64,000 nt of DNA from a virus (taxonomy: Duplodnaviria; Caudoviricetes): positions 102,805 to 166,804 of the IMG/VR virus record IMGVR_UViG_3300021399_000005; one strand, written 5' to 3'. A program made the translations under genes and the position numbers. Positions within the stretch are counted from its first letter, which is position 1; every line of letters starts with the position of its first letter. The notes below the pieces were generated by a model. The model was given only the letters and a program-made list of their open reading frames with translations. It made no database searches and was not told where the DNA came from. Below are positions 3,155-10,921 of this stretch, piece after piece.

Positions 3155-3238
3155 GTGCACCCAAGCAAGGAATCGAACCCTTTGTTGGCAGATTTGGAGT
3201 CTGCTGAAGACCCCAGTCTTCTTTGAAACTGCTCGGAT
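3155..3238 (-). tRNA. tRNA-Trp(CCA) with aberrant D-arm and acceptor/D linker
   Basis: GCAGA-CT CCA AA-TCTGC; G73; 6-bp D-stem GAAGAC/GTCTTC with TGGG loop; 9-10 nt linker after acceptor strand. Confidence 0.8.
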
Positions 3239-3320: not shown

Positions 3321-3429
3321 TGGTGGCGGTCTATTTAAGAACAATCACGCGCGACTAGAGATTTCTTGGTTGTTAGCAGTATCTATTTAGCTTTCATAGA
3401 CTTACCAACTACTGCATGTTCTGCCCGCC
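3321..3429 (-). ncRNA. Unknown 109-nt structured RNA with paired ends and ACCA 3' terminus
   Basis: GGCGG/CCGCC-ACCA terminal stem; nested AGAACA/TGTTCT, GCAGTA/TACTGC, TCTAT/ATAGA; no T-loop or anticodon arm. Confidence 0.6.
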
Positions 3430-3556: not shown

Positions 3557-3585
3557 ATTATATCACAAAATTTTTATTTTGTCAA
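3557..3585 (-). promoter_or_regulatory. Sigma-A-type promoter for the downstream tRNA/tmRNA block
   Basis: TTGACA-N17-TATAAT with extended TG; -35 overlaps the TGA stop of the methyltransferase. Confidence 0.85.
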
Positions 3586-4463
3586 TATTTTTTTGCTTTT
3601 GCAACAATAGTACAAGTCATATATGGAAAAATTTCTTCATTTTTATCATTAAATACCCATACCTTTGTAGTAATAAACTTAGGATACTCTTCTTTGCTTT
3701 TGGCAAAAGAAATAATATCAAAGTTAGCTTCTTTAATTACTTTTGTCCAAGCATTTTCAGATAAAATACAAAATTTTTCATTAATTTCTCTGTGCCAGCT
3801 ATCTGCGCCCCAAGTCCATGTTGCAAAGAATTCTTGAATTAATTTAATAGAACATTTAATTTCATGGTCATTCAGAACAACATAACTGCCAAATTTATCC
3901 CTACCTTGAATATAGGGAAAATCTCTTACAAAACGTTTAAACCATCCAAAATCTTTGCGGGTTAAAAAATTAACTCTACAAGATGTCGGCATTTGAGCTT
4001 CTAAGCCATCTCTAATAATTAAGGTACCACCATTCGCCAAAAGCGCATTTGCGTCTTTTAAAGCATTTTCAATAGGAATTGAAGTGTATCTTGCGGCAGG
4101 TTCTGCATAAGAAGAAAATTCGTGCAGAACAGAAGAGAAAATAACACAGTCAAATTCAATTTTTAACTTTTCTTTAACTTCTTCTAATCCAATACAATAT
4201 ACTTCAAGTTGATGTGAGCGTGCAATCTCTACAGCTTTTGGATTTAAGTCAATGCCAATAACTCTCGCTTCTGGATTAACCTCTTTAATGATTTTCATTA
4301 AAGAGCCATCTGCGCAACCCACGTCTAGGATGGTCTTACAACCAAAAGTATAGAAAGGAATCATCTGCTTAGAGCTTGTAGAACAACTGTTCCTCATTCT
4401 GTTTAAATAAGTTGAATAATTTTCTTCGTTCTGATTTGCTAAATATTCCAATGTATTTGCCAT
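3582..4463 (-). CDS. Class I SAM-dependent methyltransferase
   Basis: Motif I ILDVGCADG, VIGIDLN, FDCVIFSSVLHE, LANGGTLIIRD. Confidence 0.88.
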   Translation of the reverse strand: MANTLEYLANQNEENYSTYLNRMRNSCSTSSKQMIPFYTFGCKTILDVGCADGSLMKIIKEVNPEARVIGIDLNPKAVEIARSHQLEVYCIGLEEVKEKLKIEFDCVIFSSVLHEFSSYAEPAARYTSIPIENALKDANALLANGGTLIIRDGLEAQMPTSCRVNFLTRKDFGWFKRFVRDFPYIQGRDKFGSYVVLNDHEIKCSIKLIQEFFATWTWGADSWHREINEKFCILSENAWTKVIKEANFDIISFAKSKEEYPKFITTKVWVFNDKNEEIFPYMTCTIVAKAKKY

Positions 4464-4524
4464 AGCTTAAGACTCCTTTCCTTTTTTCTATATATATTTT
4501 ACTATATATTTTTAAAATAATCAA

Positions 4525-5697
4525 TTAGGAGGCTTTAAAATTGTAAATTGGTTTTAGAATTTTTTCAATTCTAACAGTATCTTTAACTAATTCAATAATT
4601 TCTTCTGATGGTTTGTAAGCAAAAGGAGATTCATCTAAAGTTTCCTCAACAATAGAAGTAGAATAAATTCCTTCCATAGTGTTCTGGAAATCTTCTAAGT
4701 TTATTAACTCTTTTGCTTGTTTTCTTGACATAACTCTGCCTGCGCCATGCGGAGCAGAATTATTCCAATCTTCATTACCTAGACCTGTGCCCAGGATACA
4801 ACCATCGCGCATATTCAATGGAATTAAAACTCGTTCTCCGTAATGTGCGGAGATAGCACCTTTGCGCACGATTCCATCTTTAAAAGAAATGTAGTTATGA
4901 ATAGTTTCAAAAGAATCTATTCCTTCCCATCCCATAGCAAGACAAATAATTTCTCCTATTGCTTCTCTATTGATAGAAGCAAAGTTTTGACATATTTCCA
5001 TATCATGAAGATAATCTTTTCTATCTTGACCTTCTAAATAGCATAATTCTTTTGGGATGTTGACCACTGGAATTTGGGCCAAAGCATTTGAAATTTCCTT
5101 TTGTCTTCCTGCTGCTTTATATTCTCGAATCAATTCTTCTCTTGCGGATTTGTTATTTTGGCAGTTTTTTATAGCTAAATCTTGGTAGTAAGAAGCTACT
5201 TGGACTCCTAAATTTCTAGAGCCAGAATGAATTATTAAATAAATGTTACCGTCTTCGTCCTGATCCAGTTCAATGAAGTGGTTACCACCACCAAGAGAAC
5301 CTAAAGATCTTTCAAGCCAATCTACATCATGCAAATAAGAATAACATTTTAATTTGTGTAAAAAAGAAGTATCTGAAACAGGAATTTCATGAACATTACA
5401 TCCAGATGGAACATAAGTTCTAATTACTTCATCTAATTTTGCAAAATCTACTGCAAGAGGTCCAAGGTTAGCTGTAAGCATGCCGCAACCGATGTCCACT
5501 CCGACAACATTAGGAATAACTTTATCTGTCATGTTTGCGGTAAATCCAATAACTGTGCCTTTTCCAGCATGGCAGTCTGGCATTATTCTAATCTTGGAAT
5601 CGGAAAAAGCAGCTGATTCAGAAATTGCTTCAATTTGTTCTTTTGCTGTTTGTTCCAAAGTTTTTGCATATATCTTTAAATCTGACATTTTTATCAC
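4525..5697 (-). CDS. rtcB: RtcB-family RNA 2',3'-cyclic phosphate/3'-phosphate ligase
   Basis: MPDCHAG, GVDIGCG, LGSLGGGNHFIE, HSGSR, HNY, SAPHGAGR, DESPFAYK. Confidence 0.97.
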   Translation of the reverse strand: MIKMSDLKIYAKTLEQTAKEQIEAISESAAFSDSKIRIMPDCHAGKGTVIGFTANMTDKVIPNVVGVDIGCGMLTANLGPLAVDFAKLDEVIRTYVPSGCNVHEIPVSDTSFLHKLKCYSYLHDVDWLERSLGSLGGGNHFIELDQDEDGNIYLIIHSGSRNLGVQVASYYQDLAIKNCQNNKSAREELIREYKAAGRQKEISNALAQIPVVNIPKELCYLEGQDRKDYLHDMEICQNFASINREAIGEIICLAMGWEGIDSFETIHNYISFKDGIVRKGAISAHYGERVLIPLNMRDGCILGTGLGNEDWNNSAPHGAGRVMSRKQAKELINLEDFQNTMEGIYSTSIVEETLDESPFAYKPSEEIIELVKDTVRIEKILKPIYNFKAS

Positions 5698-7057: not shown

Positions 7058-7130
7058 TAGGGGTTGACAGACTCGAACTGTCGACTTCCGATTTGTAAGA
7101 CCGATACTCTCCCAACTGAGCTAAACCCCT
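7058..7130 (-). tRNA. tRNA-Val(UAC)
   Basis: TCGGT-CT TAC AA-ATCGG. Confidence 0.9.
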
Positions 7131-7133
7131 ATT

Positions 7134-7249
7134 TGGTGGAGCCGGAAGGATTTGAACCTTCGTTTCTGGTGACGAACCAGCCTCTTGCCATGGATAGTTT
7201 TTCATAATGTTGTCATCATTATTACTCTCTATCTCCAGAAGATAGCCCC
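7134..7249 (-). ncRNA. tRNA-like RNA with Ala-type acceptor stem, canonical T-arm, CCA, giant D-arm and non-canonical anticodon arm
   Basis: GGGGCT/GGCTCC-ACCA (G3.U70, A73); T-arm GAAGG-TTCAAAT-CCTTC; about 60-nt nested stem replaces the D-arm; CTGGT-TCGTC-ACCAG hairpin. Confidence 0.7.
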
Positions 7250-7256
7250 ATTAAAA

Positions 7257-7332
7257 TGGAGAATATGGGATTCGAACCCATCTGTTTTCCTGTTTGCAGG
7301 ACAGGTAACCACCCCAAGCAGTTCCATTCCCC
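7257..7332 (-). tRNA. tRNA-Ala(UGC), C33
   Basis: CCTGT-CC TGC AA-ACAGG; G3.U70. Confidence 0.88.
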
Positions 7333-7392
7333 ATGTATAAAGTGTCAGAAGCGGGACTCGAACCCGCACGAGATTTTACCTCACGGGATTTT

Positions 7393-8163
7393 CTTACTAC
7401 TCTATATCACTATAGCCGCGGAAATCCGCGTTGTAGTCTGGACTATTTCTTAACCATAGCTTACGCCTTAGGTTGATGGTATATAGTCTCTACACATTTA
7501 TTTTGGGTTTAATATTCTTACCTCTATAAGTTTCAGTAGTTGCATGACAATTTGGACATAAATATCTAAGATTTTCTACTCTGTTATCATTATTATTTCC
7601 ATTAATATGGTCTATTTCCAATGCAATTTCAGTATTTAGCCAATGCCCATCACATCCACAGAATTGACATTTATATTCTATAACATTATGTCTTTCAACA
7701 TAACCTCTTAAAACTTTTTGTGTAACAGGACTGTTTTCACAAAATACTTCTTCAAGTTGATATTTTTCTTTATTTAAACTATCTCTTACAAGTCGTTCAT
7801 CAGTTTCTTTTGTTTTTCCTTTACTCCATAACTGACCTGTAAAATGTGAAATATCAATTCCAAATTCTGCAATTTTTTTCTTTAAAGTTTCTTGATTTCC
7901 TCCAGCTTGTTTTCTTCCCGCTTTTCTTAATACTTCAGCAAGTGAATAACTATCAGCACAAAGTTCTTCAAGCCACTCTTTAGTATATTTTTGTAATGCC
8001 ATATACTATCTCTCCTTTCATATAAATATGAAAAGTTCGTCTACCTTTTTATAAAGGTCTACCCAAAAATTTAGCTCGTCGTTGCCTCTACCTAAATAAA
8101 GGTTTTCGTCGAATTAGCCATCATTCACACTAGAAGTTTCCTATCTAGGTGCTCAAATTATCT
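7393..8163 (-). mobile_element. Group I self-splicing intron with internal HNH ORF
   Basis: P1 with U.G at the 5' splice site (CTT^AGA..TTTGAG); R element GTAGAGACTA; S element AAGAAATAGTCC; terminal omega-G at 7393. Confidence 0.9.
7490..8002 (-). CDS. Intron-encoded HNH homing endonuclease
   Basis: CQFCG..LEIDHINGNNNDNRVENLRYLCPNCH; own SD AAGGAG; stop overlaps the P7/R element. Confidence 0.92.
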   Translation of the reverse strand: MALQKYTKEWLEELCADSYSLAEVLRKAGRKQAGGNQETLKKKIAEFGIDISHFTGQLWSKGKTKETDERLVRDSLNKEKYQLEEVFCENSPVTQKVLRGYVERHNVIEYKCQFCGCDGHWLNTEIALEIDHINGNNNDNRVENLRYLCPNCHATTETYRGKNIKPKINV

Positions 8164-8201
8164 AAGTCCCGTATGCCTACCAGTTACATCATTCTGACAT
8201 G

Positions 8202-10423: not shown

Positions 10424-10921
10424 CTACTTTTTTAAAATTTTGATAATTTCTTCTGCTTTCTCTTTTGTGAGACCCTTAGTGCGCCAATCGGTTTTTACTA
10501 GATGGTCATCAATATCAAATTTTGCATAATCTGCAAAATATTCATCATCAACAACAGCCCAAGAAGTTGGAGCTGGTTCTAAGGTATCTACAACATGGCG
10601 AATGCCACACCCTCTGCCAGTTACCATTCCATCATAGGTTTTGTCGGTAACTTTTAAACCAACAGAAGTAAATCTTTTATCAATCTCGTTAGCAAAAATA
10701 TCTTGATTCTCTTTATGAATCTTATACCACTCTGCTTTCCAAGTTGAAGTTAGCCAAATTTCTGCTCCAGTTTCATTAATAATGTACTTAAGGTTTTGAA
10801 GTTTATCTTCATCTATTCCCAGATATTTATCTCCAATTTCTGGGTCTGGTATTAAATAAGGAGTTGACGCATCACAGTTCAAAACTCCGTCAATGTCTAG
10901 AAATAAAAGTCTTCGAATCAT
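10424..10921 (-). CDS. HAD-family phosphatase (HAD_SAK_2 / Swiss-army-knife RNA-repair type)
   Basis: LLFLDIDGVLN motif I, LTSTWK, RGCGI, WAVVDD, GLT near C-terminus. Confidence 0.82.
   Translation of the reverse strand: MIRRLLFLDIDGVLNCDASTPYLIPDPEIGDKYLGIDEDKLQNLKYIINETGAEIWLTSTWKAEWYKIHKENQDIFANEIDKRFTSVGLKVTDKTYDGMVTGRGCGIRHVVDTLEPAPTSWAVVDDEYFADYAKFDIDDHLVKTDWRTKGLTKEKAEEIIKILKK

Follow-up and report, generated by a model that had tools for sequence, protein, structure and literature searches.

What does a gene do that carries the alanine-accepting half of a tRNA and no anticodon? A caudoviricete phage (IMG/VR record IMGVR_UViG_3300021399_000005) has such a gene in its tRNA array, between tRNA-Ala(UGC) and tRNA-Val(UAC). 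A preliminary description, made from the sequence without database searches, took it for an alanine-acceptor tRNA mimic with a giant D-arm and no proper anticodon loop, and offered three ideas on its role: a codon-independent alanine donor, a ribosome-rescue mimic or a decoy for tRNA-targeting toxins. The window, i.e. the whole stretch of 64,000 nt that was analysed here, is the final 64 kb of a complete virus record of 166,804 bp with direct terminal repeats and a GC content of about 30–39%. The coordinates of all features are collected in Table 1.

The tRNA array and its other genes

The minus-strand tRNA array fills the first 11.3 kb of the window. ARAGORN finds 24 tRNAs in it, which cover 18 amino acids, and none elsewhere in the genome; an encoded CCA end, as in the element, is present in 13 of the 24. 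In addition, a tRNA-Phe(GAA) missed by ARAGORN is recognized by Rfam with 45 bits, and an aberrant tRNA-like candidate with a CCA anticodon (Trp) was noticed by eye only, as it is called by neither program. A group I intron (weak Rfam match, 19.7 bits) interrupts the tRNA-Leu(UAA) and carries an open reading frame of 170 aa for an HNH endonuclease. In the related contig L029 this tRNA is continuous; the window differs from that contig by an insertion of ∼770 nt, which is placed precisely at the anticodon. Thus, the presence of the intron is variable within the clade.

Genes for an RtcB ligase, an adjoining SAM methyltransferase, and a HAD_SAK_2 phosphatase are interleaved with the tRNAs. RtcB and the methyltransferase also stand side by side in two short related contigs that were reached via RtcB. 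The phage further encodes a complete one-piece tmRNA of its own, which ARAGORN misses. It has a long tag of 24 aa whose frame ends with ...ALAA-stop, it lacks an encoded CCA (...CUCCA-CUA-CCAG) and it is immediately followed by a terminator hairpin. A gene for SmpB was not found in the phage. A second candidate for a non-tRNA RNA comprises 109 nt and is located 3 nt before a tRNA-Thr; it starts with GGCGG, ends with CCGCC-ACCA, is devoid of a T-arm and folds with a z-score of −1.5. A near-consensus promoter (TTGACA-17-TATAAT) is found upstream of this candidate.

Between the 116-nt element and the neighboring tRNAs we could find neither a promoter nor a terminator, so that co-transcription with the neighbors is a safe inference. 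The 5′ end of the element is preceded by a spacer ending in AAU, as is the case for most tRNAs of the array.

Table 1. Positions of the element, its parts, the neighboring genes and the related RNAs. Positions refer to the window unless a contig is named; nt i of the element is window position 7250−i.
Feature	Position	Strand	Remarks
Phage tmRNA, one-piece, complete	35–339	minus	Rfam RF00023, 64.7 bits, model positions 1–374
tRNA-Phe(GAA)	846–918	minus	
Trp(CCA) tRNA-like candidate	3155–3238	minus	
Candidate RNA of 109 nt	3321–3429	minus	
Promoter upstream of the 109-nt candidate	about 3583–3555	minus	
RtcB, methyltransferase, HAD_SAK_2 phosphatase	3582–5697 and 10424–10921	minus	interleaved with tRNAs
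tRNA-Val(UAC), downstream neighbor	7058–7130	minus	starts 3 nt past the CCA of the element
Whole element, tRNA-like RNA gene, 116 nt	7134–7249	minus	from sequence and fold
Acceptor 3′ strand CGGCUCC, A73, encoded CCA	7134–7144	minus	nt 106–112, nt 113, nt 114–116
T-arm GAAGG-UUCAAAU-CCUUC	7145–7161	minus	nt 89–105
Hairpin CUGGU-UCGUC-ACCAG	7166–7180	minus	nt 70–84; anticodon-arm position, 5-nt loop
Proposed insertion of 57 nt	7177–7233	minus	nt 17–73; putative; direct repeat CUGG on either side
Long nested hairpin (UCUU/AAGA, GAUAG/CUAUC, AUAAUG/CAUUAU)	7183–7242	minus	nt 8–67; apical loop AUGACAA
Four in-frame stop codons, UAA UAA UGA UGA	7213–7224	minus	nt 26–37; apical hairpin
Acceptor 5′ strand GGGGCUA	7243–7249	minus	nt 1–7; holds G3 of G3.U70; invariant in L029
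tRNA-Ala(UGC), upstream neighbor	7257–7332	minus	spacer UUUUAAU (7 nt) between discriminator and element
tRNA-Leu(UAA)	7343–8198	minus	
Group I intron of tRNA-Leu(UAA)	about 7393–8162	minus	
HNH endonuclease reading frame	7490–8002	minus	
Second run of four stops, UAA UAA UGA UAA	7584–7595	minus	group I intron/HNH region
Uninterrupted tRNA-Leu of the related contig	L029:1158–1243		
TLD-only (tRNA-like domain only) tmRNA-like RNAs of IMG/VR phages (53–110 nt)	L059:8358–8410		
	L060:6818–6879		
	L063:820–881		
	L066:4373–4442		
	L069:623–692		
	L009:558–633		
	L008:381–490		
	L022:5122–5196		

Structure of the element

The primary features that had been listed for the element, namely the length of 116 nt, the GGGG 5′ end, G3.U70, A73, the encoded CCA, and the T-arm, are all present on the minus strand. 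The acceptor stem consists of the six pairs G1-C72, G2-C71, G3.U70, G4-C69, C5-G68, and U6.G67, whereas the seventh position (A7/C66) is unpaired, and it is completed by the discriminator A and the CCA end. The T-arm, with 5 bp and a 7-nt loop of the type UUCRANY, immediately precedes the acceptor 3′ strand. With a single T-arm and a single CCA end the element cannot be read as a "two-headed" alanine RNA, and we have dismissed this reading.

The fold of minimum free energy (−30.3 kcal/mol) dominates the ensemble and contains all helices named in Table 1, among them the nested helices and the 5-nt loop noted before. The pair probabilities are highest for the T-arm (∼1.0) and for the acceptor (nt 1–7 with nt 107–112, 0.86–1.0), followed by the hairpin with the 5-nt loop (0.88), the helices GAUAG/CUAUC and AUAAUG/CAUUAU (∼0.8), and UCUU/AAGA (∼0.6). 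As CCAG (nt 81–84) can pair with either copy of CUGG (nt 12–15 or nt 70–73), there is an alternative fold in which the ACCAG strand pairs with UUCUGG of nt 10–15 (−27.9 kcal/mol, probability 0.1). The helices of ∼60 nt in place of a D-arm are therefore seen as they had been described; what was missed at that time is that the same region can also be read as an insertion of 57 nt in a core resembling a mini-tmRNA (see below).

The total folding energy is ordinary (z = −1.5; 14 of 200 shuffled sequences fold equally well). The case for more than a chance structure thus rests on other observations, namely the compensatory conservation of the T-stem (see below), the AAU spacer, and a strict scan for T-arms in 13 kb of the array, which outside the annotated tRNAs returned only the element and the 3′ exon of the tRNA-Leu. 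We conclude that the 116-nt element is a real gene with a correctly placed tRNA-specific top half.

The element is not a decoding tRNA

ARAGORN does not call the element by default or when introns are permitted, and relaxed thresholds yield spurious calls only. Likewise, Rfam does not call it at the gathering thresholds and does not give a tRNA match; the tRNA model RF00005 stays below 23 bits and is outscored by the tmRNA model of the same clan. A D-arm and a 7-nt anticodon loop are both lacking in the fold, and the loop at the anticodon-arm position has 5 nt. One could nevertheless consider a tRNA which decodes in spite of an intron or aberrant arms, for example, one with alanine identity, a GAC anticodon and a giant variable region. 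In fact a cloverleaf can be drawn with a D-arm-like pairing UUCU/AGAG and a 6-bp stem that exposes GAC in a 7-nt loop (constrained fold −24.1 kcal/mol). However, this structure lies 6 kcal/mol above the minimum, its D-stem has a probability of ∼0 and its variable region would have 42 nt, and we have rejected it. Moreover, tRNAs for both amino acids in question, Val and Ala, immediately adjoin the element, and we consider a decoding function to be extremely improbable. Nor would the element be needed for decoding, as it stands next to tRNA-Ala and tRNA-Val in an array that covers 18 amino acids and, in addition, Phe, the intron-split Leu(UAA) and the unvalidated Trp(CCA).

Bacterial Y RNAs contain a tRNA-like module and are often encoded beside rtcB. 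The RtcB gene of the phage is located 1.4 kb downstream of the element, and a YrlA-type tRNA mimic working together with a Ro protein would suit this neighborhood. But a TROVE/Ro protein was not found in the phage, the YrlA model (RF02553) gives weak matches to ordinary tRNAs only and none to the element, and the topology is the opposite one, since the ends of the element are at an acceptor with CCA. A Y RNA is therefore the explanation to which we give hardly any weight.

Taken together, the sequence, the failure as a tRNA and the conservation described below support the earlier view of the element as a tRNA mimic that has no decoding anticodon and whose acceptor shows alanine identity.

Relation to tmRNA and the proposed 57-nt insertion

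The sole Rfam match of the element is to tmRNA and it is below the threshold: 23.4 bits compared to the gathering cut-off of 47 (E 2e-7 in a search of 801 nt with permissive thresholds). The cut-off of RF00023 is also missed by the tmRNA of mycobacteriophage DS6A (43.2 bits) and by an RNA of an IMG/VR phage (L009, 46.0 bits). The preliminary description had stated that matching an established Rfam family would speak against it. The check on tmRNA, YrlA, and tRNA returned this one sub-threshold match, so that the element cannot simply be assigned to any curated family.

The Rfam alignment covers the 3′ 51 nt only (positions 7134–7184), where the role of the 5′ acceptor strand falls to an internal GAGGCUG. 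An internal start at nt 66 as placed by Infernal would give a minihelix of 51 nt with −20.2 instead of −30.3 kcal/mol and an ensemble probability of ∼0, and we have discarded it. We take the match of 23.4 bits as a probable sign of tmRNA-like ends and not of an internal start. An alanine tRNA with CCA might match the tmRNA model about as well as the element does.

The likeness of the ends can be followed in the sequence. The Rfam tmRNA consensus begins with GGGGguGAucuGGaUUCG and ends with ACG, the T-arm and CCacCUCCACCA. The first 16 nt of the element (GGGGCUAUCUUCUGGA) match the start of the consensus and its 3′ part, i.e. ACG, the T-arm and CCGGCUCCACCA, matches the end. In the region analogous to the D-loop, UCUGGA follows the acceptor and is continued by GAUAG; the 3′ side, where a tmRNA would have xGAC ahead of the T-stem, reads GAAAC. 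The hallmark motif GG-(A)UUCGAC is not found behind the real 5′ end. The expected continuation appears only past the proposed insert, as UUCGUC at nt 74–79.

A direct repeat of CUGG (nt 12–15 and 70–73) flanks nt 17–73. When these 57 nt are left out, 59 nt remain in the order acceptor, short hairpin, and T-arm, and a near-equivalent construct of 58 nt (nt 1–15 joined to nt 74–116) folds in just this way with −21.1 kcal/mol. From this arrangement we infer that the element may be a mini-tmRNA-like alanine acceptor that carries a 57-nt insertion. An orthologue of the element free of the insert was not found, and the phage genome contains no second copy of nt 17–73. With a single copy only, an origin of the insert from a repeat or a mobile element within the phage genome was dismissed.

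The features of a standard tmRNA are not present in the element. Neither pseudoknots nor a resume codon with a tag frame could be found, only the run of four stop codons, and the tmRNA mode of ARAGORN gave no credible result. A split tmRNA with the mRNA-like part elsewhere is excluded because the tmRNA of the phage is in one piece and complete.

Conservation and distribution

Homologues were reached through the neighboring small proteins and led to seven Logan contigs. Six of them (L030–L035) contain identical copies of the element. The copy in the seventh, L029, is 93% identical, lies at the same position between Ala and Val and is set apart by seven substitutions and a one-base insertion. 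Four of these differences affect the long hairpin, all within its internal loops, and four the T-arm. The T-arm of L029 reads GGAGG-UUCGAAU-CCUCU, that is, one A-U pair is replaced by G-C in a compensatory double change, one G-C pair by G-U, and one base of the loop is changed. All 33 of the 33 predicted pairs are kept. In simulations matched to L029 in their numbers of transitions and transversions, every pair survived with p 0.075, and with p 0.009 when in addition at least one compensatory pair was demanded. The changes in L029 thus support selection on the T-arm; they say little on the other five of the six helices, which are invariant between the two distinct sequences. Covariation among homologues, to which the first account had looked for a check, is accordingly seen in the T-stem and not beyond.

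Elsewhere the element was not encountered. A blastn search against 50,697 GenBank phage records returned only matches of T-arm length. Exact patterns of 25 and 19 nt gave nothing or chance matches in IMG/VR, and a tmRNA-like 5′ pattern gave one unrelated match. In whole records with RtcB homologues (47–50% protein identity) the best score of a single-sequence covariance model (R1), which picks up mostly ordinary tRNAs, was only 17 bits. Among four contigs from JGI metagenomes that were anchored on the neighboring tRNA-Ala none contains the element (one of them stops short of the site), and contigs with HAD_SAK_2 homologues (50–60% identity) do not contain a long tRNA-like element of the Ala type. 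As no copy was found in GenBank phages, IMG/VR, JGI contigs, or in the RtcB- or HAD_SAK_2-sharing phages searched, the element appears to be specific to one narrow clade.

This distribution is one of the points which could speak for a relic, in which a mini-tmRNA-like gene or a copy of a tRNA-Ala was broken by the 57-nt insertion and is now neutral, though still harmlessly processed within the tRNA precursor. Furthermore, conservation of the element (93% identity) does not exceed that of the 665 nt around it (95.3%), the insert is bounded by the direct repeat CUGG and the z-score of the fold is just −1.5. On the contrary, the acceptor, A73, and CCA are intact, every predicted pair is present in both variants, the three substitutions in the T-stem all preserve pairing, two of them as the double compensatory change, and the other four changes are all found in loops. 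We therefore regard a relic as unlikely, without denying it some weight.

The second feature that invites a separate explanation is the run UAA UAA UGA UGA. Such runs of four in-frame stops are rare: the phage genome has 12 of them in 333,608 positions, and they arise in 0.1% of the shuffled elements, although this count was made after the run had been noticed. One further run, with UAA as the last codon, lies ∼350 nt upstream of the element. If the element were a stop-only mini-tmRNA, the ribosome would resume on these stops after the transfer of alanine and release the stalled protein with at most a few added residues and without a degradation tag. The phage would then recycle stalled ribosomes without tagging its own proteins for degradation. 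The insert stands at the place of the mRNA-like domain, the run is unchanged in L029, and tmRNAs with tags of two amino acids are on record (PMC11915505). Yet a pseudoknot and a recognizable context of a resume codon are missing. In L029 the inserted base is located just upstream of the stops and shifts all frames counted from the 5′ side, and the rarity of the run is partly due to base pairing, as it overlaps a stem. We consider this mode of action to be very unlikely.

Possible role of the element

Our preferred reading, which we hold tentatively and would not yet call probable, is that the element is a non-decoding tRNA-like RNA gene and an enlarged relative of the tag-less, TLD-only mini-tmRNAs of phages. 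A G3.U70 acceptor helix suffices for charging by AlaRS, as is the case for tmRNA and for minihelices, and RNase P requires the stack of acceptor and T-arm only. The element would be transcribed together with the neighboring tRNAs, cut by RNase P at G1, trimmed to CCA, and alanylated by the AlaRS of the host. As it does not read codons, it would have to act via proteins which recognize the top half of a tRNA. By analogy with the DS6A-type RNA the most likely target would be the host SmpB (with EF-Tu), and the element might modulate or block trans-translation of the host; the 57-nt insert would then be an added hairpin domain.

Of the three roles proposed at the outset, a ribosome-rescue mimic would fit best, because the ends of the element agree with the tmRNA consensus, the sole Rfam match is to tmRNA (below the threshold) and a tag-less phage tmRNA has been published. 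Nevertheless, the complete tmRNA of the phage, the lack of a phage SmpB and the interrupted region analogous to the D-loop weigh against SmpB and trans-translation as the target. Other points speak against an enlarged mini-tmRNA relative altogether, namely the tmRNA score far under the gathering cut-off, the UUCGUC motif that appears only past the proposed insert, the extra hairpin before the T-arm, the existence of just one diverged homologue, conservation no higher than that of the flanks, and the absence of the element from the phages searched that share RtcB or HAD_SAK_2 homologues at 47–60% identity.

The gene neighborhood suggests another possibility, namely a stable RNA of the array with a different role, either as a decoy or sponge for host defence enzymes directed at the acceptor ends or anticodon loops of tRNAs or as a ligand of the RNA-repair proteins of the phage. 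The array holds RtcB, the methyltransferase, and the HAD_SAK_2 phosphatase, and the apical loop AUGACAA resembles an anticodon loop with GAC, in which the places of U33 and A37 are likewise taken by U and A. A precedent for small RNAs among phage tRNAs is provided by T4, whose tRNA region encodes two stable non-tRNA RNAs, RNA C of 139 nt and RNA D of 119 nt (PMC3014915, PMC9697503); RNA C contains a T-arm-like hairpin, CCGGG-UUCGAAU-CCCGG. But the similarity of the element to RNAs of T4 or of GenBank phages does not extend past the T-arm, a defence system or binding partner was not identified, and the argument is entirely contextual. For these reasons we think that a decoy or repair ligand is rather improbable, on a par with a relic.

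Returning to an enlarged relative of the mini-tmRNAs, phage RNAs which consist of just the alanine-accepting half of a tRNA or tmRNA seem to be widespread and are almost unstudied. Candidate roles for them are titration of SmpB, rescue without tagging, and decoys for defence nucleases. What is unusual in the present case is the large extra hairpin domain and the coexistence with a complete phage tmRNA and a set of RNA-repair genes. This coexistence argues against a simple loss of tmRNA.

Comparison with known RNAs

With T4 RNA C and RNA D the element shares the position of a non-tRNA RNA beside tRNAs in a phage cluster, and with 116 nt it is close to their size range of 119–139 nt. Unlike the element, the T4 RNAs have neither an acceptor stem with G3.U70 nor an encoded CCA, and the folds differ. 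A homology in sequence to RNA C or RNA D was not detected (blastn, 50,697 phage records).

Standard one-piece tmRNAs (RF00023), including the copy of the phage itself, resemble the element in their acceptor with alanine identity, in the T-arm, and in a start of the type GGGGCU...UCUGGA at the 5′ end. In contrast to them, the element is without pseudoknots, without a resume codon and tag frame and without the P2 helix that joins the 5′ and 3′ flanks by the T-arm. From any tmRNA it is distinguished by the extra hairpin and a linker of 12 nt, which separate the long helix from the T-arm.

The closest published counterpart is the tmRNA of mycobacteriophage DS6A, which is tag-less and was described as "little more than the TLD" (PMC4131195; PMC11915505). 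The preliminary description was not aware that this kind of RNA is known. tmRNAs without a coding sequence also occur in jakobid mitochondria and in plastids of Mallomonadaceae (PMC4131195, PMC11915505), and a similar molecule consisting of the TLD only inhibited the tmRNA of E. coli according to the citation of Mao et al. 2009 in PMC4131195, which is the sole hint at a function in print. We located the DS6A RNA as a sequence of 83 nt with 3′ end CUA. Both RNAs are encoded by a phage, have an acceptor with G3.U70 that ends in ...GGCUCCA, a canonical T-arm and xAC ahead of the T-stem, lack an anticodon arm and a tag frame, and match the Rfam tmRNA model below its threshold. Unlike the DS6A RNA, the element has 116 instead of 83 nt (the plastid forms have ∼65 nt), and the match is weaker (23.4 compared to 43.2 bits). 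Its motif of the UCGAC type reads UUCGUC and is split from the 5′ GG by the 57-nt insert. In addition, it has the extra hairpin before the T-arm, it encodes CCA where DS6A ends with CUA, and it is located inside the tRNA array of a phage with a full tmRNA.

Shorter RNAs of this kind were also recovered by pattern scans of IMG/VR. These scans fixed the end sequences, so that the likeness at the ends is partly by construction. The RNAs (Table 1) have 53–110 nt, are unannotated, come from unrelated phages, and score 29–46 bits against the Rfam tmRNA model, all below the cut-off; some of them are located within tRNA arrays. Among them are an RNA of 76 nt (46 bits), a family of 110 nt (34 bits), and an RNA of 75 nt (32 bits) from within the tRNA array of a 210-kb phage; further ones have 53–70 nt, several with GAC motifs on both sides. 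In an alignment only the ends align, which cannot separate a tRNA-Ala from a mini-tmRNA. The RNAs of 53–76 nt (L059, L060, L063, L066, L069, L009, and L022) are built from acceptor, short hairpin, T-arm, and ACCA as the element is apart from its insert, and the one of L059 is similar also in its CUGG...CCAG hairpin and its AAGG/CCUU T-stem. The long inserted hairpin is present in none of them, and a homology of the middle part is not demonstrable. Thus, alanine-acceptor phage RNAs without an anticodon are already known in a shorter form, and the element, for which support from comparison is very slight, would be an enlarged, atypical member of this group, which it extends only modestly.
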